A model generated the notes under the pieces. That model was not told where the DNA came from and made no database searches. It worked only from the letters and a program-made list of their open reading frames with translations. Shown one piece after another: positions 8,694 to 51,620 of a stretch of DNA of 64,000 nt. A program made the translations under genes and the position numbers. Position 1 is the stretch's first letter, and each line of letters starts with the position of its first letter. Source of the stretch: Guillardia theta CCMP2712 (Eukaryota > Protista > Cryptophyta); assembly GCF_000315625.1 (NCBI RefSeq), contig NW_005434656.1:293741-357740 (forward strand). The letters run 5' to 3'.

Positions 8694-10047
8694 GATCAGT
8701 GTTCTGAGGGAAATTTCTCTTCTTAGTTCACTTCACTTCATCCCATCCATTCGCAGAATCAAGCCTCGGAGGCGAGCGGCTCAAACTTCGAATCCGACCA
8801 GTCTCTAGGTTTTTACCCGTGCCACTGTTCGAGCCACTGCGGCGACGCGCCCGTCACCGGGCGTCACAGCAGTTGCAGCACTATGAGACTGACTCAGTGA
8901 GCTTGAAGAGGCTCCGAAGCCTTGGAGGCTGAGCCAGTGGTCTCCGATACCAGCCGCTGGTGCTTCGCTTCCCTCCTTGTGCCGCAGTGCCAGTACTGAG
9001 GCTGCCTCCCCAGGCTTTATATTGCTACCAGCGCGATTGTCCTACGGTACTGACAGTGATGTTTAACTTAACTTTGACTAAAGAAGCTACTCAGTGACTA
9101 GCAGCGGGTTTCAAGTTTGACCGCCGCCGGGCCGAGTCTGTCAACTTCCGAACTTCCGCCCCTGGGGCCGCTGCCATGATTTTAAAAGTCCGATCATAGC
9201 CTAGTGACTCAGAAGCGGCAGCTCAGTCAGGCTCGCCGAGGCTCCGGGCCCGGGGCGCCCGCCGCGCCGGGTCCGGGTGACTCTCGACCGCGGTACCGTA
9301 CCGTCCGGACGGTCTACCGTACGGCGACCCGGTCCGACGGTCACCGGCAAGTCGGACTCCCGAGCCAAAGGCCGGGCCGCCGCGACACTGATGTCAAGTC
9401 ACCGTAGACGGTAGGCTTGAAATCCGACTCTAGTGATCGACGGCAGTATCCGACATCAGAAACTTGATCATACGAGTCAGCCAGGCATTGGACGGACTGT
9501 ACGCCATCTTCACAAAATCTCACTGAATGGATCTATTTTCAGCCTGACAACAGCCAAACATGGACGCTTCAACCTTATAGTGATGATCTCATTGTCTTGC
9601 AGGACTAGTATTGTGCCAGGAATGTAGGTTATCTTGGATCGACACAAGGCAATTTGACCCCGGCCCGGTGAGTCTGTTCTCTCTGTTGAACCATATCAAG
9701 TTTATTTCACCATGTTTGGCTGCCATCGCCAAAAAACTTTCAATACGTCACATCACTGCCTTTTGCGTGAGATGCGTGCTTACAAACAATTCATTGTTGA
9801 CGTCTGCAGCCTGCAAACTTCGGGCTTTAAGTGTCATTAAGGGCTCTAAAATACAAGGCCTAAACTTCTACTATGATACAAATGAGACGGCAAGGAATAA
9901 TTCTGTTGCGTATTATTGTGCCCTTTACCTGTATTTGATTCATCATCAACGCCCAACCGATCCGCCAGGTTTCAAGACAGCTCGATAGGGAATGGTAGGT
10001 AGTCATGTAAAACCATCGTGCTGCATTTTTCGCCTCGAATTCAATCT

Positions 10048-10271
10048 GCGCTCATCTCCATCATGTGGCCGCGCTCATCTCCATCATGTGACCGCGCTCA
10101 TCTCCATCATGTGGCCGCGCTCATCTCCATCATGTGGCCGCGCTCATCTCCATCATGTGGCCGCGCTCATCTCCATCATGTGGCCGCGCTCATCTCCATC
10201 ATGTGGCCGCGCTCATCTCCATCATGTGGCCGCGCTCATCTCCATCATGTGGCCGCGCTCATCTGTATCAT
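10048..10271 (+). repeat. 23-bp tandem repeat GCGCTCATCTCCATCATGTGGCC, 9 full copies plus a partial
   Basis: Units start at 10048, 10071, 10094 ... 10255; one G>A variant in copy 2. Confidence 0.95.
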
Positions 10272-10577: not shown

Positions 10578-10953
10578 TCGTTTCGGATTGTTGCCCCTCC
10601 TCCCTCGACTTCTTAGCTCCTAGTGTAAGGGTTGAAACCGGCTATAGGTTAACGTAGATTGGTCCGTCATGTTCACATGCTTGCATCGTTTCGGATTGTT
10701 GCCCCTCCTCCCTCGACTTCTTAGCTCCTAGTGTAAGGGTTGAATCTGATGCAGATAAACGTAGATTGGTCCGTCATGTTCACATGCTTGCATCGTTTCG
10801 GATTGTTGCCCCCTCCCCCTCGACTTCTTAGCTCCTAGTGTAAGGGTTGAAACCGGCTATAGGTTAACGTAGATTGGTCCGTCATGTTCACATGCTTGCA
10901 TCGTTTCGGATTGTTGCCCCTCCTCCCTCGACTTCTTAGCTCCTAGTGTAAGG
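10578..10953 (+). repeat. ~108-bp tandem repeat, 3.5 copies, with an alternating 13-14 nt variable segment (A,B,A)
   Basis: Units start at 10578, 10686, 10793 and 10901. Between GTTGAA and AACGTAGATTGG the segment reads ACCGGCTATAGGTT / TCTGATGCAGATA / ACCGGCTATAGGTT. Unit 4 stops at ...CCTAGTGTAAGG (10953). Confidence 0.95.
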
Positions 10954-11232
10954 CACGGGGGAGGAACTCCCAATAAAAGGGTCTAGTACCGGTATTTTTA
11001 TGATATTTTGGGGGTACCTTTTCAGGAGGGGGTGGGTGAGTTTGCAGGAAATCGCAATGGCAGCAAGGCGGCGACCAGGTTTAAGGATGATTTACTCAGC
11101 CTGTGCAATGATGACAATCGTGAAACCACCATAGCCTTTCAGGAAATTGTAAAATCTATATCATGGTATCAATCATTTGAATTGCATCGTAGCAGTGTTT
11201 AATATTTTCCACAATACGTATCTCTCTTTTTT

Positions 11233-14200
11233 CTACTTGCAGCCAGCAATGCTACGCAATCCCCGGAACCGTTGCATATTACCTGTTAATCCTTCATCCC
11301 ATTGCCCTGATTTAGCATATACTCGCTTTCGATTGTTCTTCTGCGTACTATTGTCTGGCTCCACATCATGATCAGATCCATCCCGTGCATTGAAAGCTTC
11401 ACGGTCGTGCGGTTTGCTCAGGACAATTCGCTTCTTCGAATGCTCGTACACAAAAGGCAGGTTTGGATCCACCTTTTTAGATAATTCTATGCATGCCTGA
11501 TTGAATTTTCTCAGAAAATCCTTCTTGTTCAGATGGCCGATCAAGGACCACAGATTCTCTACACTATCCGTGCAGAGAGTTCGTGAATTGAAGTCATAGT
11601 CTCTATCACCCAGCGCATGATTCTTATCCCTCACATACTGTTGTACTTGCAGATGAGTATCAATTGCAACTATGAAGCCTTCAAATGTTACAGATGATAG
11701 TCCCTTGACATGTTTTTGGCTGACACTGGTCCAGTCGATGCCTTCCAATAGCCATCTTCGACCCTCTTGAACGAGACGTATCCTCTCTGAAACTTTCAGC
11801 CCTCTTTCATCGAATGCTTTGTGCAGGCCAGACATGGCCTCTGCCATTCTTGCTGTCGCTTCATGTCCTTCTGCCCTTAGTAGACTGATGGCCTTGTCAC
11901 TGAACATCTTCAGCATGATATCCACCGATTGTGGATCGGCGGTCCCGTCGACTTCCATCTGAGTCATCCAAGCAGGATTCTTCTTGGCGATATCACTGTA
12001 AGCTTTATGCCATATCTGGGCTTCCGTAGAAGACGATTGAGACTTCCCTGATCCAATGGAATGCCTGACATTCTTCAACAAGTGATTGATGCACGGCGAG
12101 AAAAACAACAACTTGTTCGTAATTGGAGAGAGGACGGGATTGGATAACCATTCGTCGAATTTAAAGCGGATCTTGTGTTCATCAAAGTCATTTAGTCCAT
12201 CAGCTATTCTTCGCTCCATCTCCCAAGGAGTGAATGTTTCCCCCCCCCTCTTCATTGTGCTTGGCCAATGAAAGAACTTCTTCATATCCGTACCGTCTGC
12301 AAAATATTTGAAACCTGCAAAACATCTCTTTCAGGGTCGCTCTGGGCCTCTTGCTCGTGTGGCATCGTAGCGTCTTCTCCTTCTGAACTTGCCATATGGC
12401 CTGGTTCTGTCGTAACTGCAAAACAAACTGTTTGATTTCTCTCATTTCAGCAACATCCATGTGTACAATTCCTTGCTGAGGTGTGATGGGCAATGACGAC
12501 AAGTCATCACCATCGTACTCATCTGGATGGTCCAATGTGCACTCACTCTCAATGTCGTGCTCTGAAATTGGAGGTTCGAACTTGAATATCCCCGAAATGT
12601 ATGCTGAAATAGATGTACATAAATGTCTATATTCCATACTGGTTGCAGTCTTGTTAATGGCCTTCACTTCCTGAATGAATGTACTTGGCTTGTCTTGGTA
12701 GAAATAACGATATATACAGGCGAACTCCCCATCGAAAGACCACACATTGAAGTTCACGCCTCTCTTCCAAGCTTCATTGGTGACAGCTAAAAAAATATCC
12801 TTTCCATCTTTGGAACACAAACTTTTATGGGCAAAGCCGATGTAAACAGGCGCAGGAGGCATATGCTTTTGTCCATCCTGTGCAACAACACATATTGCAT
12901 CTTCTGCTAGTTCGGCGATCGCCGTCTTGTAGTACAAGTCATTGTATACATTTAATTCATCTTGAATTGAACGCTGCTCGTCCTCGCTTGGTGTGGCGGT
13001 ACTGATGTAGTTGTTCAGACGATCAATCAGTTGCGGCACTTGAGTTTGGATCTGACTACATCCCTCAATGACCCCGGCCATGTACAATTGATGTGGCGTA
13101 AACCTGACTTCATTAGAGACATTCCTTCTCGTATCTGCGTTGTTGCTAATCATTTTTGCAACATACTTATCACGAATTTTCTTGTAGTCCCGTTCAGTCG
13201 TTGATTTCCTTTCATTGATGTGATCCAAGTCAGTTTTCAATAAGCCTATCACATGCTCCCGAATCGATTCAGCGGTTGTTCCCTCCAAACAAAGCTGTGC
13301 CAACCGTCTCTGTCGCATCTCAAGCCGTTCACACAAATCCATTGTTTTCCCCGTGACTCCACCTAAATCTGCTTCGCAGTCTTCGAACTGTTTACAAAAC
13401 CCAGCATTGATCATCGTCTTGTCCATCGCCAACACATGAATACCATCTACAAGGTTAAAATTCATTTCACCGTAATCATGCAAAACCTCGCTGCAGATTC
13501 TTGACTTGTTTAGATCACGTGTCTTCATGTCTGCACTCTGCAGCTTATGAAGAGTAGATATGGACGGTAGAGGCAAGTTATGCAAAGCCTGATCAGAATG
13601 GAAGTTTCTCGTATACTTGTTCCCTGGACCTGACAGTAAACGGAACGTACTCCCGTCGCAAGCATTGAGAATTGTTGATGCGAAACTCAAAACCTCCGGA
13701 GAGAATCTCATGCCCCTCGAATCTTTCGCTCTGAAGCTCTGTTGACACCAATCCATGACGAGGTAAGGCATGATTCTATGTGTGCTTTTGAAAGCTTGGA
13801 TGTCGTTTCTGGCAAAGATTACTAACTCCGAAAGTATATCCGGCAATCCAGCAGAATGCAGATTTGAAACAGCATTTTCGAATTTACATATCGCAGATAG
13901 CTCATGCTCTGTATTCTTGTCATGTGTTTGACACAGAGAGTCGTGTTCACTCAAAATCCTTCTAATCATGTCACATCGGGTGTGGCTGTCAAGGGTTCTA
14001 AAAGTTTCAAGGACTGTCTGAATGAACAGTTCGGATTGCGCCTTGGCATGTTTGTTTGGAAGACTCTCACTTGTGTCAACATGTTCATCCGACATTCTTG
14101 CATACCTGTACAATGAACGTCAGGTCACTGGCATGGAAAGAAAGCAACATCTCAGACTTACTTCACAAAGTAATCGTGTATAGTAGTTTGCAATGAATTC

Positions 14201-14656
14201 AAATTCTCGAAGTGAGCAGTAGACCATTCTTCCATGCGAGAAAGAAGGTTTCGATTCTTCCTGTGAACGTTGCCAATACGTGTACGAAGTCGATTCAAGT
14301 GCTCATAAATGGCCTTTGTGCCTCCATGTGATTTGCCAGATGCTTGTTGTTCGAAAACCTGCATGTAGTGCTGGAGAAAACATCTCGAAAATCCTTCTGA
14401 TGTAGGCCCATAGACATCTCCGAGGACCTTTAGTTTGTTCTGGACTTCATACAAGGATACAGAACGAAGACTCCACTTGAGGTAATGGGTCACTGAAACT
14501 AAAAGATTCTCGTCTTCACACTCCACAGATAAAGTTGAATGGCCATGACATTGCAAGAAATCCAACAGCTTGAAAACCAAGGCATCATCCCATTGAGAGA
14601 GCAGGATCTGCTCAAGATCATTGCAATCCTTGTTTTTTTTCAACCCTCCAAATCAT
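11233..14656 (-). CDS. P-element/THAP9-like DDE transposase (~1120 aa when reconstructed; one intron and two +1 homopolymer frameshifts)
   Basis: Motifs VLAMDKTMI (D at 13421-13423), WSFDGE (D at 12731-12733), FFSPCINHLLKNVRH (C/DxxH-LLKNxR), DPQSV..KMFS, and RTLCTDSVENLWS (E at 11557-11559). Intron 14106-14161 (GTAAGT...CTGAC...TACAG) joins ORF 14158-14643 in frame to ORF 12200-14113. Removing one base from the A8 run (14633-14640) and one from the G9 run (12240-12248) gives an open 3366-nt CDS from ATG 14656. Confidence 0.7.
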
Positions 14657-15608
14657 CCTTGTCTATAGTGATGTGTTTAATAAATTGTATCCACGTCGAT
14701 GTATCACCCAGGGTGTTTTCATTCCTATATGCAATATTCTCGTAGACCCACATCCAATTGACAAAGATCGGGGTTCTGTATTCATCTCCAAGGTTATCTG
14801 TCTCTTCTTTGTAGGTTTTTAGTAGAATCTGTTTCACCTTTTCGTAGGCCTCGCTAGGTTCCTTTTTATTGTTTGCATATTGATCCAAATCACATTCGGT
14901 TGGATATTCTTCCAAATCTGTTTCGGTAACTTGGGACAGTGCATCCGATGACGCATCAATAGATTCCGTTACACCCGTGTCTGTCTCGGTGGACACGGAT
15001 TCCGTTTCATCGTATTCACGCGTCAGGCTCTTGAACCTCCTTTCGAGGTCTGATATGCTGATTTCTCTATTGAAAGACGGTGTGCTCTGATCTGCGTCCT
15101 CGACAAGTTTCATCCCCCTGTCCAACCTCTTCTTGTGCGCCATAAAGTGTACCTTGACATGTCTGATGTTCTTCATGCAGGATATGAGGAAGGGGACGAT
15201 GCTGTCTGGATCGCTGTGGTCTATGCTGATGTTCGAACAACCCTCAATGTACTTTGCCACAAGCTTCTCCATCATCACCTTCCTAAGGCACTCATCGGAC
15301 AAGTTCTTGATGGGTTCGGCCTTGGGTTGTGAGCACATTCTCTCCGCCTGTTTCCATTCCTGTGGGGTGATGGAGAATGCGGATCTTGCCTTTACATCCT
15401 TTCCAAGCACGCGGAAGGGCATCTTGAACGTGCCAAGAACCTTGATCTCCTTCACATGCCCCTCCAATGCAGCCCTATCAACGTGACTTATGTCTAGCGA
15501 TGGTGCTTTCTCAATCGCACTCCTCAACCCCGCCTCCATGCTGTTGCTTTTCCTATCATTCATCGCTCTTGTTAAGGGATACGGCGATGGATTTAAATGA
15601 CAAGACAA
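14640..15608 (-). CDS. Hypothetical 322-aa protein of the inserted element (acidic central tract)
   Basis: Intronless ORF from an ATG; abuts its neighbours. Confidence 0.7.
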   Translation of the reverse strand: MSCHLNPSPYPLTRAMNDRKSNSMEAGLRSAIEKAPSLDISHVDRAALEGHVKEIKVLGTFKMPFRVLGKDVKARSAFSITPQEWKQAERMCSQPKAEPIKNLSDECLRKVMMEKLVAKYIEGCSNISIDHSDPDSIVPFLISCMKNIRHVKVHFMAHKKRLDRGMKLVEDADQSTPSFNREISISDLERRFKSLTREYDETESVSTETDTGVTESIDASSDALSQVTETDLEEYPTECDLDQYANNKKEPSEAYEKVKQILLKTYKEETDNLGDEYRTPIFVNWMWVYENIAYRNENTLGDTSTWIQFIKHITIDKDDLEG

Positions 15609-15625
15609 TGTCTACAATCATGAAC

Positions 15626-16325
15626 CTACCTACGCTCTGGTATCTGTACTGTAAGCAACCTAGACATGCAAAAGGGGTCCTGATTGATCCTGACTATGTG
15701 GTCCACATCGTGTGGCACGCTCATCCGAAGTTGATCAAACTTAGAGATCACGCTCTTTTCAAACCCCACCCATTGGATGGAGTATACCGGGTTCAACCTC
15801 TTTGTATCGCACTTGGAAAGCAGTAGCTTGTAACGTTCAAATGGATGCGTGTCGAACAGGTAAACAGATTCCATCAAGACTGCATCGAATATCAAGATCT
15901 TGGGAATGTACTTGTCGATCGTGACTTGATCCTCCGTATAGTGTGCCAGTACGCATGAATCCATGGGGAGTGCGTTATTAAGCATTATGTCGGCCTGTGA
16001 AAGGTAAACCTTGCCGTGCAGGCCAATGAGAGTGAATCCATTCTTGTCCGTGTATAGGCTGAATGTGACCCGATTCTTTGGTAACCAAGTTGCAGTGTGT
16101 TCCTTTCTATCGTCTTCACATCGTTTAAAAGGCTTGTTATCGATCTCAATAACCCTTGTCAACTCCAACGGGATATTGAATATGTGCGACATTTCTGCAA
16201 GGCACATGTTCACAATAAACCGATCCAACATGCCTGAATCCATGTGTGAAAGTCGAAAGCTGTCATGCAAGCCTTTGTTTATATCAAAACCAAAAAAAAA
16301 CAACAGCTGTATTTAAGCGAATCAT
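15626..16325 (-). CDS. Nucleotidyltransferase-fold (mRNA capping guanylyltransferase/snurportin-like) protein lacking the KxDG catalytic motif
   Basis: KILIFDAVLMESVYLFDTHPFERYKLL resembles the motif IIIa...ER segment of capping enzymes/ligases. Removing one base from the T9 run (16292-16300) extends the ORF to ATG 16325 (699 nt). Confidence 0.5.
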
Positions 16326-16352
16326 GACGAAACATTGTTTGAGAAAGTCGAG

Positions 16353-17672
16353 ATGTCGGATAGCTCCTGGCCTATACAGACCTTTAAAGTCTTATCGTTG
16401 TTGACGAACCTTATCGCCCCCATCTTGAAGTCGTTGGGTATCTTCTTTCCTCAAATCGAGGTGTTGAAGAACTGCAGTCCATCGGCAGTTAAGACATGGA
16501 ACTTCTTTGCATGCCGTCGTGGTATCACCGGTGGTTTTTCACTTTCCAGTATCTTCTTCTCGACACTGGAGGGTTATAGCTACCATGCAAGTGCCGTGTA
16601 CGGTATTCACTTCGCCGCAATACTTTCATTGCTTTTCTTCCTTTACATGACAAGGGATGCTGACAAACTCCTTGATGTCTGCTACAACATCAACTTCATC
16701 AACGTAGTCAATGCGTTATTTGTCATTTTTGACATGTATTTTGGCTATGACCACGAAGTAGGGATTCAGAGTTCTTTCTTTGGATTTATCGTGTGTGATT
16801 TAATATGCCAGATTATCATCACTGCACTGATCGTTTACGTACTCCGTGAAGTTGCCCCAGATCTGGGGAGTTTGAAATCGGATAACCCCAACAAGCAATA
16901 TTACATCAACACTTTCCTGTACCGGATGGGACCAAACCCTTCTTTATGGATGCTGGTGAACGCCATTAGCATGCAATTGGTTTACTTGTGTACCGGGCAT
17001 GATGTATCGTTGCTTATACTTCGCATGGTATGTGTCGCTCTGTGCTACCTATCCATGTTCAAGTTCAGGATGTTCTTTTTCTATATGCAATATTCAGGTC
17101 ATCAATCCGAGTACGTTTCCCTCATGCACTGGCGAGATGTCGTCAAAGCATTCAAAAATACCACCAAACATTTCAATATCATAATGGAAGATGATTTCAG
17201 GAAGGATAGGATTGAAAAGTTCTTCGGTAATATAAATTCGCCTTTCTACGTGATCATCAATGCAAATATAACTACAGCCAATTGCACCGTTCTGAATCCT
17301 GATGAGATGATCCTCATGGCCATGTACTGGGATAATATGGAACAGTTCAGGAAAACGTTCCAAGACGCGGAATTATTCATCCAAGGACTTAAGACTGGAA
17401 CTGCTGCAAACGGTGGGAGGGGGTTCATTATAAAGACGCGTGAGAAAATTGAAGAGAAGAATAAGTCAAACATAATCTATTACCCAACTGAATTCACACA
17501 TATGCATACCGTGCGTGAGTTTCAGCTCAAAAAGGTTCCGACGACGTTTGACTATGAAAAGCATGGGGATAGTATCAAAAAATCTCCGACTGTACTCAAC
17601 TACATGTTCATTGCGCAAATGATGGGATCGGAACAGACTCGAAAGATAAGGAGTAGCAAAGGTGCAATCTGA
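16353..17672 (+). CDS. Multi-pass membrane protein (~6-7 hydrophobic segments) with soluble C-terminal domain, element-encoded
   Basis: Intronless ORF 16335-17672, first ATG at 16353; hydrophobic stretches such as GIHFAAILSLLFFLYM, FFGFIVCDLICQIIITALIVYVL and SLLILRMVCVALCYL. Confidence 0.7.
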   Translation: MSDSSWPIQTFKVLSLLTNLIAPILKSLGIFFPQIEVLKNCSPSAVKTWNFFACRRGITGGFSLSSIFFSTLEGYSYHASAVYGIHFAAILSLLFFLYMTRDADKLLDVCYNINFINVVNALFVIFDMYFGYDHEVGIQSSFFGFIVCDLICQIIITALIVYVLREVAPDLGSLKSDNPNKQYYINTFLYRMGPNPSLWMLVNAISMQLVYLCTGHDVSLLILRMVCVALCYLSMFKFRMFFFYMQYSGHQSEYVSLMHWRDVVKAFKNTTKHFNIIMEDDFRKDRIEKFFGNINSPFYVIINANITTANCTVLNPDEMILMAMYWDNMEQFRKTFQDAELFIQGLKTGTAANGGRGFIIKTREKIEEKNKSNIIYYPTEFTHMHTVREFQLKKVPTTFDYEKHGDSIKKSPTVLNYMFIAQMMGSEQTRKIRSSKGAI

Positions 17673-17785
17673 GTGTAAGAAAACACCCAGATCCTTGAGT
17701 TATCAATAAACGTCCGAATCTAACACATACGTGCCTAAAAACTATTTGAATATAATGTTCATTGAACGAGACAAAGTAGATATAG

Positions 17786-18163
17786 ATGTCAGTGAAGCTG
17801 TTATTATCAAATCAGCTAGATATTGTGAAGCATGATGATCAGATTATAGTGGAGAACGTTGCGAGTGTCATCCTGAGTCTTGGGAAAGAGTATGCCTTCC
17901 ATGACTTTGACATAAAGAAACACGATAGTGGATATGTTATGAGTGTAAAGACATCCCCGCACGCAAGCATATCCCTTGTAGACATGCAACTTATCAAAGA
18001 CTGCAACCCAATAAGGGTTCAAGACGTGTACGTGAATGTTATCGAAGGTGTGATTCGTGTGAATGTGATCATATTGAATTCAGGCATACCCGTTGTGATC
18101 ACGGATACCGACGTGATAAGGGTCAAGAAGAGGAAGATATGGAATATATTTCAGCGGGCATAG
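17786..18163 (+). CDS. Hypothetical 125-aa protein with C-terminal basic (KKRK) NLS-like patch
   Basis: ATG-initiated intronless ORF in the compact block. Confidence 0.65.
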   Translation: MSVKLLLSNQLDIVKHDDQIIVENVASVILSLGKEYAFHDFDIKKHDSGYVMSVKTSPHASISLVDMQLIKDCNPIRVQDVYVNVIEGVIRVNVIILNSGIPVVITDTDVIRVKKRKIWNIFQRA

Positions 18164-18171
18164 TCTATTCA

Positions 18172-18411
18172 TTACAATCTGTCCACCTTTAAGGCTGGGT
18201 TGTGACGTATAGATTTGGGCGGTGTTTTAGATCGAAATCGTTCAATGACCTCTACAACCTCCATCTTCATGTTCCTCCATGGGCAAGGGCATAGATCGTC
18301 CACTGCACATGGCTTTCTTTGCAACGGGCAGTAAATGCATCTTTTGGATTTAGGGTATACCCTACCAAAGACGTTCTGAACGCTTCTGCTTATCTTTTCG
18401 TAGGGTGACAT
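18172..18411 (-). CDS. Small basic Cys-containing hypothetical protein (79 aa)
   Basis: ATG ORF filling the gap between its neighbours; CIYC..C..CPC motif. Confidence 0.5.
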   Translation of the reverse strand: MSPYEKISRSVQNVFGRVYPKSKRCIYCPLQRKPCAVDDLCPCPWRNMKMEVVEVIERFRSKTPPKSIRHNPALKVDRL

Positions 18412-18439
18412 GCCTTGCTATCGAGGGGTCGTTGCGGTC

Positions 18440-19450
18440 TTAGTACTTTATATCGACACTAGTAAAACCCATGACATCTATCTCCTTATTGGTCAAATTA
18501 CGTATGCACATCTTAATAAGATTTTCAACCTCGGTGATGAACTTACACTTTATCTTAAAATAGCATTTCAGGTGGGCCTCGATGGGCAGCAGGTGCTGTA
18601 GCTCGTGTATCTTGGGTAGGAGTATAACGTTTTGCATGGTGATGCCCATTCTCATCAGGTATACGATCCCTATGAAGAGCACGTTTTTCTTGAACATCCC
18701 AAGCTGTGTACTGAACTTCTGTGACAACATATTCAAGAATCGGACAATGTATTCTGAAGCGGTGGAAGCAACGGATCTGCGCATCTCTTCGTCCCATTCG
18801 GGATAACAGATCCTTATCTTGCTACATTGGTGCAACATGTTGGTGACTATGTTGCAAAGCCTCGGTACTTTTCCTGGATTATTGATCTTGAAATCTTTTA
18901 AAAGTTTCCACATCACTTGCCTGTGCTTGAGCATCATTCTATTCTTTTCGTTCATGTAACTCTTCTTACAAACATCGGATGACAATATCCATACAAGGCA
19001 TTTATTCACTTCATCGAAACTGTAAAGACTATCCTCCACTGTTTTCTGTGACATGACCTTGTTGTAAAAGTCCCTGTTGCTCACGTTTGAGACCAAGATG
19101 TCTTCATCTAGCATCATATTATCCATGAATTCATCCATTGGGAACACCTTCTGTTTGACACAACACCCTGTAATGAAGCATACACGGCTATCGTTCTCAT
19201 CGATAAGGTCACAGCTACTTTCATCTTTGCAATTATGGACTTCACCACATTCCAAGCATCCTGCAAGATCCATATCGAATATGTCCCAATGGCTGCACTT
19301 GTGTCCACAAAGACCCCTGGGTATAACGAATGGGCATCTTATCATCCTCCATATCCTAACCCTGTGGTCAAGTTCTACCCTCTTCTTGTAATACTTGCTA
19401 TCCGCTTTGGGTCTGAATTGAAACGCGGGCTTAAGATTCGTTACACTCAT
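18440..19450 (-). CDS. Herpesvirus UL92/ORF31-like zinc-binding late-transcription-factor-like protein (336 aa)
   Basis: GCLECGEVHNCKDESSCDLIDENDSRVCFITG matches the CxxCxxxHxCxxxxxC-x10-VCxxTG spacing recalled for HCMV UL92/KSHV ORF31. Confidence 0.6.
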   Translation of the reverse strand: MSVTNLKPAFQFRPKADSKYYKKRVELDHRVRIWRMIRCPFVIPRGLCGHKCSHWDIFDMDLAGCLECGEVHNCKDESSCDLIDENDSRVCFITGCCVKQKVFPMDEFMDNMMLDEDILVSNVSNRDFYNKVMSQKTVEDSLYSFDEVNKCLVWILSSDVCKKSYMNEKNRMMLKHRQVMWKLLKDFKINNPGKVPRLCNIVTNMLHQCSKIRICYPEWDEEMRRSVASTASEYIVRFLNMLSQKFSTQLGMFKKNVLFIGIVYLMRMGITMQNVILLPKIHELQHLLPIEAHLKCYFKIKCKFITEVENLIKMCIRNLTNKEIDVMGFTSVDIKY

Positions 19451-19524
19451 ACTGCAATGCCCCCCTTCGGTAGATTAGTTTTTATTGTTTAAAATCACAA
19501 ATCAAAAAAGGATTGCTCTTTAAA

Positions 19525-21573
19525 TCACCCGGTTGTCATGATCCTTCTCTTTTTACCACACCTCCTTCTACTTTCCCTGGATCTATCATAGTTGACACAG
19601 GCACGGGCGAGGTCCTTGATGTCGATCACAAACTTCATGATGTACCTTGGGAGCATGTGTTTCATGCATAAGTAGAGCTGTATGTGAACCCCGTACTTTG
19701 CGTTCAATACCACCACCCTCTCAAGGTTTGATGTCTTCCCACACCTTATACACTCCTTGCAGCATGCCCTTCCATTCTTGATTAGGGTAGAGTTTGTGTC
19801 CGATGCCTCGAACTTGAAGTAACTTGACTTGCTCGACTTCCTATTCTTTATGTCATTGTAATAACCACCATGGTCACTGCTCGACATTTTGAGTATGGAG
19901 CTGAGTGAAGTCCCTATCCTTGGGTTCGAATAATGATTGGCGAACTCACATGGCTTCGTGAACTCATTTCCGGTATGGTTCCATCTCTTGAAGGTGCCGC
20001 AACATGGGCAGAGTATGTAGCTAGCGCCCTGTATGACGAGTATCTTGCCAAGCATGTTGACGCTTATGATAGAGTTATGAAGCCCACAGGAAGCACAGCG
20101 CAACTGGTTGGTCTGCATACATAGTCTGAGTTTCGATGAGACGGTAAAGCCATTGAGTTTGTTGCAGCACTTCATGCAGATGTGGACCTTCATCATGTTC
20201 TCCATTTGGAAATGGTCCGAGCTATATCTCTTTAGTATTGCAGAGCATTGCATCGCTGTAAGGTTACATGGAAGCGGATACACCTTACATCTAGAATGCA
20301 AGTGGTCTATGATGTTGAATTCTTCCACGGTTATGTTCGGGTTGTCACGGTGATAGATTTTCCAGAGCAGGCCATTGATATTCACAGGGTTCATGGATTT
20401 TGCTGCATCGAAGAGATGGTCCATATCATCCGTAATTCTCCTCCATTTTACCACGACCTCCTTGGATGGTGCATGTCTGCCAGACCTGAACTTACATGTC
20501 CTGACACATCGATCCACACACACAGTGGCGACTTCATCCAATCTATCCCACGTCCAATCTCCACTCTGTAGGGTCTCTTGTCGGAATGCATCGGCGACAT
20601 TGGGACAGATGTCAAAAAACGTCTGCATGCCTTGTACAGAACAAATGATCTCCTTCTCCGACACTATGAATGTGTTGCATGCATACCAGACGTACTCCAT
20701 GATCGACAACTTTAAAAGATTGAGGTTTGAATAGATGAACCTTGCCTGCTCTTGTAATGGTCTTGTCATCATCGATCTTAACTCACTCGCGCATCGCACC
20801 CTCTGTTCGAATGATGGCCTCTTCGCAGTATTGGGATACAAGCCAAGCAGGAGCCCGTGCATTATGTTGACTAGAACAGGTGTAGAAGGGTCAACAAAAA
20901 GCTCCTCTGCAAGAAAGGCGACCCTGTTCCTCTTCAAGCACGGGATACTGTTGCATATCACATTCAATATGAGGTTTGACTTCCAGTCCTTCTGTATGAG
21001 ACTTTGTGATATGAATCTTCCGATATCTGGTAGGGTGGAATGGTGGTAGGTGATACTAGGATGTAGCAACCTTGCATCGTTTGGTATGCGGTTGTATAGA
21101 TCTGGGAACTTCTTGGCGATCCAACAAGATATCAGGCTTCTATCAATCATCACTTGTGCATCGCGGATCCCGTGCTTAAGGTCTTCGTGTGTCTTCCTGA
21201 TGTAATGATCCAGCACCGGATCTTCTGGCCTGAATAGCGTTTGAATAGCTAAATCGCAACGTTTCGACATCTCGGTAAAAGCCGACGACCCGCCCGCAGA
21301 CAGGGCGTTCCACACCGCGTTAACATGGCGTGAGCATGCTCGCCCGACCTCCTTGTCGTGTACCTTGGCCTCCCCATCTGACTGACAACATGACGTCAAC
21401 ACCCATCCTGTCAGAAAAGACTCGTGCAAGTATGCAAGCATGAGCGTACCCTGACTCTTTATAATCGGTTCTCGTCGCTCGTTGAACATCACTGAAACAG
21501 CAATATTTTGATGATGACTGCTTCCCTGTTGTGTGCTCAATGAGGACAATGGCTCTGAGATTCTGAATGACAT
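19525..21573 (-). CDS. Herpesvirus UL49/ORF66-like Cys-rich late-transcription-factor-like protein (682 aa)
   Basis: C-terminal CMKCCNKLNG...CMQTNQLRCASCG...CPCCG...CIRCG resembles the CxxCGxxLN..CxxTxxxxCSxCG zinc-binding region recalled for HCMV UL49/KSHV ORF66; basic C-terminal tail RRRCGKKRR. Confidence 0.5.
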   Translation of the reverse strand: MSFRISEPLSSLSTQQGSSHHQNIAVSVMFNERREPIIKSQGTLMLAYLHESFLTGWVLTSCCQSDGEAKVHDKEVGRACSRHVNAVWNALSAGGSSAFTEMSKRCDLAIQTLFRPEDPVLDHYIRKTHEDLKHGIRDAQVMIDRSLISCWIAKKFPDLYNRIPNDARLLHPSITYHHSTLPDIGRFISQSLIQKDWKSNLILNVICNSIPCLKRNRVAFLAEELFVDPSTPVLVNIMHGLLLGLYPNTAKRPSFEQRVRCASELRSMMTRPLQEQARFIYSNLNLLKLSIMEYVWYACNTFIVSEKEIICSVQGMQTFFDICPNVADAFRQETLQSGDWTWDRLDEVATVCVDRCVRTCKFRSGRHAPSKEVVVKWRRITDDMDHLFDAAKSMNPVNINGLLWKIYHRDNPNITVEEFNIIDHLHSRCKVYPLPCNLTAMQCSAILKRYSSDHFQMENMMKVHICMKCCNKLNGFTVSSKLRLCMQTNQLRCASCGLHNSIISVNMLGKILVIQGASYILCPCCGTFKRWNHTGNEFTKPCEFANHYSNPRIGTSLSSILKMSSSDHGGYYNDIKNRKSSKSSYFKFEASDTNSTLIKNGRACCKECIRCGKTSNLERVVVLNAKYGVHIQLYLCMKHMLPRYIMKFVIDIKDLARACVNYDRSRESRRRCGKKRRIMTTG

Positions 21574-22167
21574 CGTTTACTTGAACATATGGCCACATAC
21601 AGAACGTTTTCACAGTAACATACATAGGTTGAAGAAAAAGCAGAGGTAAAGCGGAAATTGCAACGGGCAAACGTCGCTGCTTTCTGAGAATCAGTGTGTC
21701 AAGCTATGCAGATTCCAGTGAATTGCTCATTGGAAAGCGTGCATTGGAACCGCAAATCCTAAATGGAAGACCCAGACATCGAGAACATTCGCTGGAAGTG
21801 ACGAAGTTCATGCAATAAAAGACTACCGTTTCATGTTGTTGATGTTCTGCATGACTGCATCAGGCATACCACATGAGAGAATCATGCAATATACGTGATG
21901 CTGGAACCTCATACAAGTGTAGCATGACCTTTGCATGCGAATCCGATCTTCATTCTGTCCTCATTGCATGTCTACCTCATGAACTTGAATGCATCGGTGG
22001 AACAAATTCCTAACAGTTCAAAAAAAGAGTGGGTTGTGGTACAAATTGATAACTGGAGTCTTGAACTGGGATCACCTATGGATTTAACCTAGATCTTAAC
22101 CCCTTTCTCCAGGTTAACTAAAGTGGGCACACTACGCTACGCTATTCAGAAGGTCATCCATAAAACC

Positions 22168-22223
22168 CCTAGTGTAAGGGTTGAAACTGATGCAGATGAA
22201 CGTAGATTGGTCCGTCATGTTCA
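22168..22223 (+). repeat. Distal half-copy of the 108-bp repeat (B-type variable segment)
   Basis: CCTAGTGTAAGGGTTGAA-ACTGATGCAGATG-AACGTAGATTGGTCCGTCATGTTCA matches 10727-10782 with two substitutions. Confidence 0.9.
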
Positions 22224-22907
22224 ACTTTCAAGGACATATAGGACACGGTTCCGACTTCAAACTGAAGCCTAAAAGTTCCCCCCGCCGCCGGCCGCGCGGC
22301 GCGCGCCGGCCGCGGCCCGACTCGCGACTCCGGCCTGAGTCTTTACTCAAAGTTAAGTTGGCCAGTCCGACGGTCCGACCGGTCACTCGCCCAGGGCGCC
22401 CGGCGCCGGGGACTCGACTGAGTCGGAGGGCCCGGCTTTAAGCCGGGCCGCGGCAGCCAAGTTAAGTGTGAAGGTGATGCCGATCAGTTAAGTTGGGGGA
22501 CAGCACTGCACAGTAAAAGGGCTCGTACTGTTTTTAACTTAAATTTGAGTAAAGTTTTAGTACAGTGATGCGACTTTGCCTAGTTTACATCTTTCGGAGG
22601 GCTCCAAGTTTTACGCCCCCAGGCGGGACGGTCGCATTTCAACTTTTTTGAAAAACAATAAAAACGAGCATAAAACAATCGACAGAAGGGGGACGTTTAA
22701 TACAGCTCAATAAATACCGGAAATCTGCATTAAACAAAGGTGATCGGGAAGCTCGCATGTGTGGAATGAATGTTGACTGAAACTGCGATTGACAATAAAG
22801 AATAGATAATGTCGATATTCTATTGGACATTTGTAGTAAGCAATAAAAAGTTCACATCCCCGCAACTTGTAGATTCCTCATTCCAGGGGAACGTGAGTAG
22901 AAGCGGC

Positions 22908-23771
22908 ATGGTACCGAGCTCTTGTTCACGGAGCGCTTGCTGTCCCCTCCTCGTCTCGAGCTTGCTTACTATCTCGTTCTTGATCTCGCCTGTCAGGGCT
23001 GAGCTGTCCATTGTGGGTGCAGGATGGGGGCGTACAGGGACGATGAGTCTGAAAGTGGCCCTGGACAAGTTGGGGTACAAGACCTACCATATGATCGAGA
23101 TCATCGAGCACAATTCCCATCATCTTGACCTGTGGATCGAACTTGCTGAGCTCCATTCCCAAGGCAAGCCTTACAAGCATGTCATCCACACCATCTTCGA
23201 GAACTACACCGCGGCTGTGGACTTTCCTGCTGCTGCGTGGTGGAAGGAGATTCTGGAGACCTTTCCGAATTCAAAGGTCATCCTCAGTACAAGAGACCCT
23301 GAAAGATGGTACAACTCTGCTAAGGAGACCATCTTTCAGGCGCTATGGCACCACAGGATCCTTGGGCTGTTTGTTCCTCTCTCGCGCAAGTTCACTGTCA
23401 TGGTGCCATCCCTGTGGGACAAGGTTCTGGGAAAAGGGAGGCGGCCGACAGACTCCAAGGAGGAGACGATCAAAGCATATCTCCAGGACGCGGAAAGATT
23501 CAGAAAGTTGAATCTGCCCAAGAGGAGGAAGTTGGAGATCGCAGTCGGCAAGGAAGGTTGGAAGCCTTTGTGCGATTTCCTAGAGATTTCGCCGGGGTCA
23601 TGTCCCACTGAGCCTTTCCCTCGGCTGAACGATCAGGCCGAGTTCAAGATGAGAGCTCTCCTCCCTTTGCGCACTGTTGCTGTCATGGTGCTGCTGTCTC
23701 CTGTCGGACTTGCCTGCCTTGTATGGTGCTTCTTCTTCAGGTCCAAAGGCAAGTCGGGCAAGAAGGAGTGA
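22908..23771 (+). CDS. Sulfotransferase-family (Sulfotransfer_4-like) protein with signal peptide and C-terminal TM helix
   Basis: IVGAGWGRTGTMSLKVALDKLGYKTYHM, AVDFPAA, KVILSTRDPERWYNS, EGWKPLCDFL, EPFPRLND; intronless. Confidence 0.85.
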   Translation: MVPSSCSRSACCPLLVSSLLTISFLISPVRAELSIVGAGWGRTGTMSLKVALDKLGYKTYHMIEIIEHNSHHLDLWIELAELHSQGKPYKHVIHTIFENYTAAVDFPAAAWWKEILETFPNSKVILSTRDPERWYNSAKETIFQALWHHRILGLFVPLSRKFTVMVPSLWDKVLGKGRRPTDSKEETIKAYLQDAERFRKLNLPKRRKLEIAVGKEGWKPLCDFLEISPGSCPTEPFPRLNDQAEFKMRALLPLRTVAVMVLLSPVGLACLVWCFFFRSKGKSGKKE

Positions 23772-27056: not shown

Positions 27057-30000
27057 CTACATGATATTGTCTGGGAGAGTCTCAGACTCGCATGCTGTGA
27101 TCTCCCCATGAGCCAGGACTGTCAACGTGGTTTCCTCCTCCTTGAACAGTGATTGCTCCGCATCTTCTTCTCCTCTGTACTGCTGTAACTCGTGGACGTC
27201 GTTAGGCGTCTCGTTCTGGTTGTAATACAATCCTCGGCCCTCACTGTCTTTGTACTCCTTCCAGCTGACCAGATTGCGGGCGCTTGTTGCCTTGTAAAAC
27301 TCGCCCTGGCTGTGATCATGAGCTCTCATGCCCGGCAGAGGGATAGAGAAGGCGCTCGTCATGGTGACGTCATCATCCGAGACGATCTTGAGGCAATGAT
27401 CAAAGCCCAAGTGTGACGTTGTCTGAAGGAGCTCTGTGTTCTGTGTAGAGAAGGGCAACGCCATGTCCGGGTCGAGCTGACGTAGAGACGACGTCTGGTC
27501 ATCCTGACTTGTCCGTTGCTGAGTTTGGTTGAAAAGCGAGAAGTGGCGAAAACCAAATACCCCCAGCCCGAACGTGAGCAATGAGAGTGAGGCAGCAAAG
27601 ATCATGCCATCTGTCAGCATTCTTTGAGATTTCTCTGGAGTCGTTGAAGCAGAAATTATCATGATCAGTGATGTGTCATTGAACGAGGCCATGGCTGTCC
27701 CGTTCAACGAGGCAATCGCAGTCCCGTTCGACGTAGCAAAAGCTGTTGAGGAATTGTACTCAATAGATGCATTGGGAATTGGAAGATGAGATGACGTCCG
27801 GGTAACAACACAAGATGATAAGTTTGAATCTGGAAACGAGCCTGTAGGACACGCCGTACACGAAGTCGAGCCCGCGCTGCCCTGCACATACCCTGCTGGA
27901 CACTCCATACACTGAGACGACCCGGTCGTGTTCTGATAGGCGCAAAGTCAGCAAGCAGCAAGCTAGCAGGTGGCAGACGCCTTGCTTTGACCTGATACGA
28001 GCCTGCAGGACACGCCGTACACGAAGTCGAGCCCGCGCTGCCCTGCACATACCCTGCTGGACACTCCATACACTGAGACGACCCGGTCGTGTTCTGATAG
28101 GCGCAAAGTCAGCAAGCAGCAAGCTAGCAGGTGGCAGACGCCTTGCTTTGACCTGATACGAGCCTGCAGGACACGCCGTACACGAAGTCGAGCCCGCGCT
28201 GCCCTGCACATACCCTGCTGGACACTCCATACACTGAGACGACCCGGTCGTGTTCTGATAGGCGCATAGTCAGCAAGCAGCAAGCTAGCAGGTGGCAGAC
28301 GCCTTGCTTTGACCTGATACGAGCCTGCAGGACACGCCGTACACGAAGTCGAGCCCGCGCTGCCCTGCACATACCCTGCTGGACACTCCATACACTGAGA
28401 CGACCCGGTCGTGTTCTGATAGGCGCAAAGTCAGCAAGCAGCAAGCTAGCAGGTGGCAGACGCCTTGCTTTGACCTGATACGAGCCTGCAGGACACGCCG
28501 TACACGAAGTCGAGCCCGCGCTGCCCTGCACATACCCTGCTGGACACTCCATACACTGAGACGACCCGGTCGTGTTCTGATAGGCGCAAAGTCAGCAAGC
28601 AGCAAGCTAGCAGGTGGCAGACGCCTTGCTTTGACCTGATACGAGCCTGCAGGACACGCCGTACACGAAGTCGAGCCCGCGCTGCCCTGCACATACCCTG
28701 CTGGACACTCCATACACTGAGACGACCCGGTCGTGTTCTGATAGGCGCAAAGTCAGCAAGCAGCAAGCTAGCAGGTGGCAGACGCCTTGCTTTGACCTGA
28801 TACGAGCCTGCAGGACACGCCGTACACGAAGTCGAGCCCGCGCTGCCCTGCACATACCCTGCTGGACACTCCATACACTGAGACGACCCGGTCGTGTTCT
28901 GATAGGCGCAAAGTCAGCAAGCAGCAAGCTAGCAGGTGGCAGACGCCTTGCTTTGACCTGATACGAGCCTGCAGGACACGCCGTACACGAAAGTCGAGCC
29001 CGCGCTGCCCTGCACATACCCTGCTGGACACTCCATACACTGAGACGACCCGGTCGTGTTCTGATAGGGCGCAAAGTCAGCAAGCAGCAAGCTAGCAGGT
29101 GGCAGACGCCTTGCTTTGACCTGATACGAGCCTGCAGGACACGCCCGTACACGAAGTCGAGCCCGCGCTGCCCTGCACATACCCTGCTGGACACTCCATA
29201 CACTGAGACGACCCGGTCGCGTTCTGATAGGCGCCCCAAAGTTCGGTGGTTTTCAGCAAAAGGGCAGCCAAAAAGCTAAAGCAAAGGTGGCAGACGCCTT
29301 GCTTTGGGTGGCAGACCGCCCTGTGATACGAGCCTGCAAGGAACACCTGCCGGGCCACGCCGTACACGAAGTCGAGCCCGCGCTGCCCTGCACATACCCC
29401 TGCTGGACACTCCATACACTGAGACGACCCGGTCGTGTTCTGATAGGCGCAAAGTCAGCAAGCAGCAAGCTAGCAGGTGGCAGACGCCTTGCTTTGACCT
29501 GATACGAGCCTGCAGGACACGCCGTACACGAAGTCGAGCCCGCGCTGCCCTGCACATACCCTGCTGGACACTCCATACACTGAGACGACCCGGTCGTGTT
29601 CTGATAGGCGCAAAGTCAGCAAGCAGCAAGCTAGCAGGTGGCAGACGCCTTGCTTTGACCTGATACGAGCCTGCAGGACACGCCGTACACGAAGTCGAGC
29701 CCGCGCTGCCCTGCACATACCCTGCTGGACACTCCATACACTGAGACGACCCGGTCGTGTTCTGATAGGCGCAAAGTCAGCAAGCAGCAAGCTAGCAGGT
29801 GGCAGACGCCTTGCTTTGACCTGATACGAGCCTGCAGGACACGCCGTACACGAAGTCGAGCCCGCGCTGCCCTGCACATACCCTGCTGGACACTCCATAC
29901 ACTGAGACGACCCGGTCGTGTTCTGATAGGCGCAAAGTCAGCAAGCAGCAAGCTAGCAGGTGGCAGACGCCTTGCTTTGACCTGATACGAGCCTGCAGGA

Positions 30001-50400: not shown

Positions 50401-51620
50401 CTTCACAGCAAACAGTTCATGCGTTTTCTGATGGAATGATCTTTGCTGCTACATTTTCTCTGCTTGGTTTTGGCCTCGGATTGTTTGGTCTTTGCAAACT
50501 AAGAACGTTCGGAAGATGCAGAAAAAAACGGCCCTCAGCAAGGCAGGATGACCAGACGTCACCTCTACGTCAGTTCGACCTGGACAAGGCCTTGCTCTTC
50601 TCTACACAGAACACAGAGCTCCTTCAGACAACGTCACACTTGGGCTTTGATCATTGCCTCAAGATCGTCTCGGATGATGACGTCACCATGACGAGCGCCT
50701 TCTCTATCCCCCTGCCGGGCATGAGAGCTCATGATAACAGCCAGGGCAAGTGCTACAAGGCAACAAGCGCCGGCCATCTGGTCAGCTGGAAGGAGTACAA
50801 AGACAGTGAGGGCCGAGGATTGTATTACAACCAGAACGAGACGCCTAACGACGTCCACGAGTTACAGCAGTACAGAGGAGAAGAAGATGCGGAGCAAACA
50901 CTGTTCAAGGAGGAGGAAACCATGTTGACAGTCCTTGCTCATGGGGAGATCACAGCATACGAATCTGAGACAGATACCAAAGAACAATCACATTCAGATG
51001 ATGAGAGCGAGGGCCATATCGACCTAGATGTCGACGAAGAAGATGAAAGACAGCAGGAGGGATCTGCTCATGATTTTGAGGGAAAATCAGAGAAGGACAA
51101 TGAGGAGTTTTCCGAGGGCGAAAGCAAGAAAGAGAGCGAGTTTGACGAGGAAAATCAGAGTGAATTACGAGGAACCCTCGAAGATCACGAAAAAAACCAG
51201 GAACAATACACGATCGAACAATATCAGTTTGATGTTGTCTCGACTTCCGCAGCAAGCATACGGGAGCATGAAGACTGTGCAGCGGAGGAGAGCCGAGAGG
51301 GCCACGAGCAGACCTTCGGCTCCGATGACCTTCGAGTCAACATTTTAGACGCGAGTGAGAAGAAGGCAACGAGGAAGCGATCTCTCAAGGAGGGGGTGGC
51401 AAACTTCTTGGATCAGATTCGTAACTTCAGTAAGGATCATCTACGGAGTTCTGTCCGCAGACTGTCGAGGAGCAACAAGGGTGAGAGCGAGCAAATCAAC
51501 CGCAACAGCTCGGTAAAGGGTCCAGCACCGACCAACCAACCTAGGAGGCAACTCAACGTGGCGGCCTTGGCAGGTTTGCAGGCAGGTGAGGCATTTTTGA
51601 CGGGAAAGTTCGGTATCTGA
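47488..51620 (+). CDS. Type-I membrane/surface protein (copy B, non-expanded paralog); two exons, 47488-49944 and 50004-51620
   Basis: Exon 1 nearly identical to copy A; intron 49945-50003 (GT...CTGAC...TTGCAG); few Cys-rich repeats, TM GMIFAATFSLLGFGLGLFGL, WW-like motif and acidic tail. Confidence 0.85.

Follow-up and report, generated by a model that had tools for sequence, protein, structure and literature searches.

Background

The six-subunit late-transcription complex of the beta- and gammaherpesviruses, known as the viral pre-initiation complex, or vPIC, is of unexplained origin. UL49 and UL92 are two of its subunits according to the accessible text of PMC9530030. An AlphaFold 3 study, as far as its accessible text goes (PMC12197705), predicts that UL92 takes the TFIIB position, its C-terminal domain resting on the TATA-binding protein (TBP)-like domain, and UL49 the TFIIA position; in the published model the two proteins are not in contact. 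The accessible part of PMC13345323 reports that the ORF24 N-domain lacks structural homologues beyond the beta- and gammaherpesviruses. Here we analyse two adjacent open reading frames (ORFs), ORF A and ORF B, in a 64,000-nucleotide stretch of the cryptophyte Guillardia theta CCMP2712 (the window), which an initial annotation had presented as a UL92-like and a UL49-like gene that might form a herpes-type late-transcription module. The explanation that we favour, and consider somewhat probable, is that they belong to a mirusvirus-derived, 6.6-kb intronless cargo within a copy of a P-type transposon, ORF A being a TFIIB-like UL92 and ORF B perhaps a remote UL49.

UL92-like genes are already on record in mirusviruses. 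The accessible parts of PMC10132985 and PMC12768974 tabulate them as a Mirusviricota core cluster, gu_c_584/OG0000082 'UL92/ORF31-like', found in 66.7 % of mirusvirus genomes and 0 % of nucleocytovirus genomes; the UL92-labelled orthogroup OG0000082 is given for 313 mirusvirus genomes (PMC12768974). One published mirusvirus genome carries UL92 together with TBP, RNApolA, RNApolB and TFIIS. The function of the cluster is not discussed in the accessible parts of the two papers, and no UL49, ORF66 or PF03117 label was found in their searchable supplements, some files of which are unreadable or oversized. Among the partly accessible texts returned by literature searches, none ties mirusviruses to the herpes late complex. 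The mirusvirus capsid clade E03 has been described in three cryptophyte assemblies (PMC10827195, accessible text). To this record we add the prediction that the UL92 family folds like TFIIB, a large unannotated family that is a candidate counterpart of UL49, and capture by a transposon.

Identity of ORF A

Both ORFs lie on the minus strand, co-oriented as initially annotated: ORF A at 18440-19450 (336 aa, intact) and ORF B, the upstream member, at 19525-21573 (682 aa), with 74 bp between them. The motifs quoted for them are present, CLECGEVHNC-x5-C...VCFITG being residues 65-95 of ORF A, and CMKCCNKLN, CMQTNQLRCASCG and CPCCG being residues 466-474, 485-497 and 522-526 of ORF B. Basic tails resembling nuclear localization signals had been proposed for both proteins. 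The C-terminal tail is found in ORF B only; ORF A is basic at its N-terminus and ends in GFTSVDIKY.

ORF A matches the Pfam family Herpes_UL92 (PF03048) with an E-value of 1.2e-6 and 28.9 bits (cut-off 21), and its homologue in locus L001, one of 28 loci compared, scores 26.8 bits. In a profile-profile comparison with hhalign, UL92 ranks first of 58 herpes families (probability 70.8, E 3.8e-5, 164 columns), the reversed control giving 0.37 %. The alignment covers nearly the whole protein, including the helical C-terminal domain, and is gappy in the C-terminal half; the likeness therefore extends past the zinc motif. A profile of the A family (36 proteins) ranked 21 of 21 betaherpesvirus UL92 proteins over all other ORFs (n=1999). 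This reference set comprises betaherpesviruses only, and the gene labels of the herpesvirus reference loci were confirmed by Pfam. Full-length homologues of ORF A show 65-75 % identity.

The zinc-ligand motif C65 C68 H72 C74 C80 C91 T94 G95 (19166-19258, minus strand) has the same spacing as in UL92, where the counterparts are C42 C45 H49 C51 C57 C68 T71 G72. The C/H ligands and G95 are conserved in 34-35 of the 36 A-family rows and T94 in 28. The spacing C-x2-C-x3-H-x-C-x4/5-C-x9/11-C-x2-T/S-G is found in 32/36 A-family and 17/21 herpes UL92 proteins, and in 17 of 2537 herpes-locus ORFs, the UL92s included. As judged from sequence, the motif is far beyond chance. Taken together, the Pfam match, the profile-profile match and the identical ligand spacing identify ORF A as a true UL92/ORF31 homologue, in agreement with the initial annotation.

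Like the herpes family (HCMV UL92, KSHV ORF31, EBV BDLF4; LTFe), ORF A has two domains, and the profile alignment with that family reaches the second. ORF A is longer, however, at 336 aa against about 200-260, with an extended linker and helical domain; identity is ~18 %, a long branch separates the ORF A side from the herpes sequences, and no UL87 partner was seen near ORF A. In a quick tree of the A family, which carries long-branch warnings and gives no direction of transfer, ORF A clusters with P0002-P0006, close to cryptophyte-derived rows. A collection of viral contigs yielded no relatives with four queries.

Predicted fold of ORF A

The helical domain of ORF A (residues 134-332; 18455-19051, minus strand) is predicted to adopt a cyclin/TFIIB-type fold. 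VIA-align compared the model with 48,161 chains, and 19 of its 20 best rows were cyclins, TFIIB/TFB, RNA polymerase III (Pol III) pre-initiation complex or origin recognition complex chains, the last two of which we take to be Brf1 and Orc6 (Z 5.5-6.9, root mean square deviation (rmsd) 2.7-5.3 Å, 87-122 residues aligned); the matches to cyclin/TFIIB folds lie at Z 5.7-6.9. The model is good for residues ~140-330 only, and its per-residue confidence (pLDDT) is mostly 70-88 in the helical block. TFIIB, Brf1 and archaeal TFB resemble ORF A in having an N-terminal zinc site and, as far as the model of ORF A goes, helices folded like a cyclin; they align with it at Z 5.7-6.8, over 88-99 residues, with rmsd 2.9-4.4 Å and 3-14 % identity. 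Those factors have two cyclin repeats, whereas ORF A has about one, and a four-ligand ribbon, whereas ORF A has six C/H ligands.

Several points weigh against a TFIIB-like fold. The zinc domain is modelled poorly (pLDDT <50); Z stays below 8 for a helical domain that is possibly a common arrangement; and, with roughly one cyclin repeat aligned, cyclins tie with TFIIB. Foldseek gave no significant match for ORF A in PDB or BFVD, UL92 itself appearing only at rank 46. In favour of such a fold, TFIIB-type viral proteins stand at ranks 3, 15, 36 and 37 of the BFVD search, none significant. In TFIIB, too, a cyclin-like domain comes after a zinc domain, and PMC12197705 predicts that UL92 occupies the TFIIB position; on these grounds the UL92-family proteins are likely to be reduced TFIIB-like factors. 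A cyclin/TFIIB fold of UL92 is stated neither in the accessible text of that study nor in those found by our literature search; the fold is thus new here, the presence of UL92 in mirusviruses being already known. It would give one subunit of the late complex a concrete origin and mechanism, and it fits the published model, which notes position only.

As a separate observation, alloherpesvirus ORF68-type proteins are among the weak Foldseek matches of ORF A (ranks 4 and 12) and might be the fish-herpesvirus counterparts of UL92.

Relation of ORF B to UL49/ORF66

The viral-derived part of ORF B (residues ~113-682; 19525-21237, minus strand) has a helical region, a zinc-finger cluster and a basic tail. 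Its family numbers 615 clusters (50 % identity) at E<=1e-3, and nearly all of the 20 that were looked up are unnamed environmental proteins. The zinc-finger cluster of ORF B holds four ordered CxxC-type motifs at 466/469, 493/496, 522/525 and 542/545 (19939-20178, minus strand), followed by an extra zinc site, C608 C611 C636 H639 (19657-19752, minus strand). In ORF66 nothing comparable follows motif IV, the conserved cysteines stopping at C424/C427 of 429. C466, C469, C493, C608, C611, C636 and H639 are invariant across 119 rows of the ORF B family.

Predicted structure favours the initial assignment of ORF B to UL49/ORF66 (HCMV UL49, KSHV ORF66, EBV BFRF2; PF03117; LTFa), but sequence profiles do not. 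In a Foldseek search of viral models (BFVD), the best matches of ORF B (predicted model pTM 0.53) were ORF66/UL49 entries, with ORF66 first (E 6.4e-3, probability 0.57, 448 columns) and the family at ranks 1, 3, 15 and 16 (E 6.4e-3 to 0.12). ORF B shares with these proteins a helical N-terminal half and four ordered C-terminal CxnC motifs, and it is locally alike in C-x2-T-x4-C-x2-C-G. The four-motif order occurs in 81/119 of the ORF B family and 45/45 UL49 proteins, compared with 1/986 and 3/156 in background sets and 19/2380 shuffles. In the profile-profile comparison of the C-terminal domain, UL49 came first of the 58 families, at the motif picked out in the initial annotation, but with a probability of only ~3 % (E 0.014, 28-31 columns) and a score, 24.0, close to that of unrelated neighbour families (up to 23.0).

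That last result and those that follow argue against a relationship. The Foldseek TM-scores are only 0.08-0.18, with 6.4e-3 as the best E-value. The Pfam UL49 profile, which gave 196-336 bits with positive controls, was absent from ORF B, from 13 of 13 close relatives and from all 88 further relatives scanned of the 150 listed. When 2537 ORFs were searched with a hidden Markov model of the ORF B C-terminal domain, UL49 was not raised in rank (best E for a UL49 protein 6.7), and the N-terminal halves did not align (hhalign probability 0.13). The four-motif pattern was written after both families had been seen; the spacers differ and are shorter here, 22/25/28 versus 42/48/25, as do the conserved non-cysteine motifs; and a tighter shared motif matched 10/119 of the ORF B family and 0/45 UL49 proteins. 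Against PDB, ORF B gave no structure row at Z >=5 and no sequence match, and against the ESM Atlas no usable feature match, the structure rows all having TM <0.3 (by query). No solved UL49 or UL92 structure turned up. We regard homology of ORF B with UL49/ORF66 as evenly balanced, and have not filed ORF B as a member of that family.

ORF44 of white sturgeon herpesvirus 2, an alloherpesvirus, was seen at Foldseek rank 10 for ORF B (probability 0.38) and might be the fish-herpesvirus counterpart of UL49.

Possible roles in the parent virus

In the parent virus, the cyclin-like domain of ORF A would dock on the viral TBP at TA-rich promoters, and its zinc domain would reach the polymerase or its adaptor, replacing TFIIB. 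ORF B, if it is UL49-like, would contact upstream DNA at the TFIIA position and set the direction. We suggest, tentatively and as something short of an even chance, that mirusviruses hold a three-part ancestor of the beta- and gammaherpesvirus late complex, made up of TBP, UL92 in the role of a reduced TFIIB, and the B family, which would be UL49 and take the TFIIA position. Were the B family UL49, a large unannotated mirusvirus family would gain a function and a simpler TBP-UL92-UL49 system would become testable; part of the herpes late machinery is hinted to be very old. The deep origin of the vPIC proposed initially is plausible for UL92 and at best evenly poised for UL49, but has no support for UL87-type, UL95 or UL91 subunits: when UL87, UL95, UL91, UL49 and UL92 were compared with seven neighbour families, the best probability was 1.1 and there was no UL87, UL95 or UL91 match, three cargo ORFs included. 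Pfam scans of the submitted ORFs showed no UL79, for which no profile was built. Replication in the nucleus, also claimed at the outset, does not follow. Because UL92 is present in a mirusvirus genome with RNApolA, RNApolB and TFIIS, it implies neither reliance on host Pol II nor a nuclear site.

Probable capture within a transposon

The window, part of a 936,637-bp contig, is eukaryotic in content, with spliced host-type genes outside the captured stretch. A tandem array of 108-bp units is interrupted by the region 10954-22167, on either side of which stands a copy of a 12-bp direct repeat. The left copy of this repeat, CCTAGTGTAAGG (10942-10953, plus strand), is the end of a 108-bp x3.5 array (10578-10953), and the right copy (22168-22223, plus strand) continues as 56 bp of array unit, 96 % identical. 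Because the array unit resumes at the right copy, we read the region as an element inserted into the array. Its left arm (10954-14645), with a depth of ~2-6 fold, many variant letters in run X18 and loose ends, and its right arm (21227-22167), with raised depth and variants, belong to a multi-copy element. Between them lies 6.58 kb of single-copy viral cargo (14646-21226) with even depth, similar to that of the flanking host gene, and with no listed variant in X18. X18 is a chromatin immunoprecipitation run, and variant letters and the loose ends of run X2 were weighted above depth. X2 contigs span 14574-16299 and 16311-21256, with loose ends at 14645 and 21227, and another contig of that run joins the right end to host DNA (22142-23000).

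The arms probably belong to a P-type transposon. This superfamily is characterized by an RNase H transposase, short terminal inverted repeats and a 7-8-bp target duplication, and the P element terminus is CANRG. In the left arm, a 631-aa ORF (12200-14095, minus strand) may be the N-terminal part of a P-element/THAP9-like transposase, with ESM feature matches of 0.93 (no family) and 0.91/0.90 (PF21787 TNP-like_RNaseH_N). A 350-aa ORF that overlaps it in another frame (11233-12285, minus strand) is likely to be the C-terminal part of the same transposase; 22 of 90 X18 reads have a 1-base deletion at 12240. The 12-bp direct repeat permits an 8-bp duplication reading (GTGTAAGG), which leaves ends CACGG.../...CCCTA, near CANRG. 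Against this assignment, the transposase call is a feature-search lead with a recognition score of 2251, under the bar of 2300, and the 631-aa ORF has no Pfam match. The element also differs from P-element/THAP9 transposons in that its ends are only loosely inverted, with no long terminal inverted repeat found, its transposase is split over two frames and its cargo is viral.

The right arm extends into ORF B, whose codons 1 to ~116 (21227-21573, minus strand) lie in repeated sequence. The junction is at codon 116, and at 21227 another copy has its loose end in run X2. The N-terminus of ORF B is unlike those of its 79-80 % identical homologues, and residues 1-110 gave a best blast match of E 0.67. 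The sequence thus marks the first ~115 codons as non-viral and derived from the transposon arm. On this chromosome ORF B would have lost its own start and become fused in frame to the arm, from which it is probably transcribed. The captured pair is a relic, not a working module in this chromosome. The element may have picked up the viral DNA, or the viral DNA may have inserted into the element. Capture inside a host DNA transposon is a route by which mirusvirus genes may enter algal genomes and gain a promoter.

In four studies, contigs of runs guessed to be RNA cover ORF B and break off shortly after its stop codon, at 19468-19528, whereas a DNA contig continues beyond; a transcript may end there, though the hint is weak. 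Transcription of ORF B is probably driven from the transposon arm. Weighing against this, hardly any reads of X17, a raw RNA run, fall on ORF B, and the same holds for ORF A and the flanking host gene (6 % of the run was read). The RNA-guessed contigs do not cover ORF A or the 125-aa gene beyond it, which says nothing on silence.

Probable mirusvirus origin and gene order

The cargo is likely to come from a mirusvirus of cryptophyte algae, an attribution by association in which capsid-type genes play no part. Homologues of both ORFs are present in Guillardia theta and Hanusia phi, and of ORF B also in Baffinella. Genes typical of the phylum are the UL92-like gene in the window, heliorhodopsin in L001, and RING and ephrin-like genes in L004, L005, L007 and L014. 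Telling against this origin, neither the window nor the loci yielded an identifiable gene for capsid, portal, triplex or terminase, although Pfam may miss them and the fragment is 6.6 kb. ORF A carries the same Pfam label as gu_c_584/OG0000082 and differs little in length, its counterpart in one genome having 353 aa; both have a 125-aa neighbour, by length. The likeness is one of label and length, and the copy here is endogenous and held in a transposon. The initial annotation had invoked a herpes-related virus of protists, and this is borne out, with a mirusvirus as the inferred source.

The proposal that the two genes form a side-by-side module fared less well. L001 directly shows B followed by A, and behind them heliorhodopsin and the 125-aa gene; for three other homologue pairs, equal contig sizes (6872, 58234 and 20658) imply that order. 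However, of the 28 loci, 13 extend >=2.5 kb upstream of the UL92-like gene, and L001 alone among these carries B; in one herpesvirus record of 235,646 bp, ~60 kb separate UL49 from UL92; and the copy in the window is a transposon-held fragment. The adjacency is limited to a clade and is weak evidence for a module. The 125-aa gene (17786-18163, plus strand), which is convergent with ORF A, is a more constant neighbour than B, with homologues in 15/28 loci; in the published mirusvirus genome a gene matching it by length only also follows UL92.

Alternative explanations

The nearest competing explanation is that ORF A is UL92-like but ORF B an unrelated mirusvirus zinc-finger protein, whose helical N-terminal half and CxxC ribbons resemble UL49 by convergence and whose place beside ORF A reflects the gene order of one clade. 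Every sequence-profile test of ORF B lies at or near noise, as this would predict; the extra zinc site and the other spacers, and the presence of B beside A in one of 13 informative loci, point the same way. Convergence accounts less readily for four named ORF66/UL49 entries within the top 16 Foldseek rows, the best with probability 0.57 over 448 columns, or for UL49 ranking first of 58 families at a motif chosen beforehand. We consider it unlikely, though a serious competitor, and prefer the explanation in which ORF B is perhaps a remote UL49 carried, with the TFIIB-like ORF A, as mirusvirus cargo.

Two further explanations concern the status of the locus, and both fit it poorly. Domestication of the pair, or of ORF B alone, as a nuclear transcription regulator of the host would explain why both frames are open, why ORF B retains all zinc ligands and the basic tail, and why RNA-guessed contigs of four studies cover it. 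It is hard to reconcile with a chimeric ORF B that includes transposon-arm sequence in a discrete insertion within a tandem array, with ORFs A and B 65-80 % identical to environmental relatives, with a GC content at third codon positions that is not host-type (0.55-0.58 against 0.64-0.66 in two flanking genes) and with the near-absence of X17 reads on ORF B; we regard it as improbable. Less probable still, and largely refuted for this locus, is that the stretch is part of a herpes-like virus, live or latent, whose late complex has all six subunits, or that it is a contaminating viral contig. The genes are dense, intronless and lower in GC, as such a source would have them, but they occupy 6.6 kb only, both end genes are cut by the arms and spliced host-type genes lie outside. 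Also against it are the X2 contig that runs into host DNA, a cargo depth like that of the flanking host gene, and the lack of a UL87, UL95 or UL91 match among the neighbours. Captured mirusvirus cargo thus remains our preferred explanation.

Other features of the window and the loci

Three further ORFs complete the cargo. The 439-aa intronless ORF (16353-17672, plus strand), with a hydrophobic N-terminal half, has no significant Pfam or PHROG match. The 205-aa ORF (15626-16243, minus strand) has no Pfam, PHROG or PDB sequence match; by eye it looks like a degenerate capping-enzyme/ligase domain, a tentative reading. A 209-codon gene with an mRNA-capping/ligase structural match is described in the accessible account of a published mirusvirus. 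The 307-aa ORF (14640-15563, minus strand) is probably 3'-truncated: the left arm supplies its stop codon. The divergent 109-bp intergenic region at 16244-16352 carries a TATAAA, with TATTTA on the opposite strand. TATTTA was found upstream of 0/25 UL92-like genes and of 0-3 genes per neighbour family, in a count with no null and a set with no capsid genes.

In L001 the heliorhodopsin gene (11616-12884) separates the 125-aa gene from the UL92-like gene; the window has none at the corresponding position. A 1500-2000-aa ORF is found upstream of the UL92-like gene in L007, L012, L015 and L020. In L022-L028 (for example L026, 4274-9286) the large upstream gene is broken into many short ORFs, as expected for intron-rich mirusvirus lineages.

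An abundant transcript covers the transposase-like ORFs at 10954-13134 and is antisense to them, judging by GT..AG joints read on the plus strand. Its splice skips are of 54 nt (11457-11512) and 297 nt (11075-11373), and many reads end at 11047-11063. Just left of the element, beside the 108-bp array, is a further tandem array of 23 bp x9.7 (10048-10271). A TTAACTT-rich motif of 20-22 bp occurs at 9065-9084, 22340-22359 and 22533-22554, in inverted and direct copies round GC-rich palindromic patches. Loose ends at 22359 and 22554 indicate further genomic copies; the motif possibly marks the ends of another small mobile element.

Finally, an 11-kb array at 27836-38885 consists of ~68 copies of a 161-bp unit, 97-99 % alike, and encodes CPAG cysteine-rich repeats. 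It sits between ephrin-receptor-like ORFs, a related pair of which is found on the other strand at 47488-51620. Repeats of this kind are frequent in cryptophyte genes and in mirusvirus genes.

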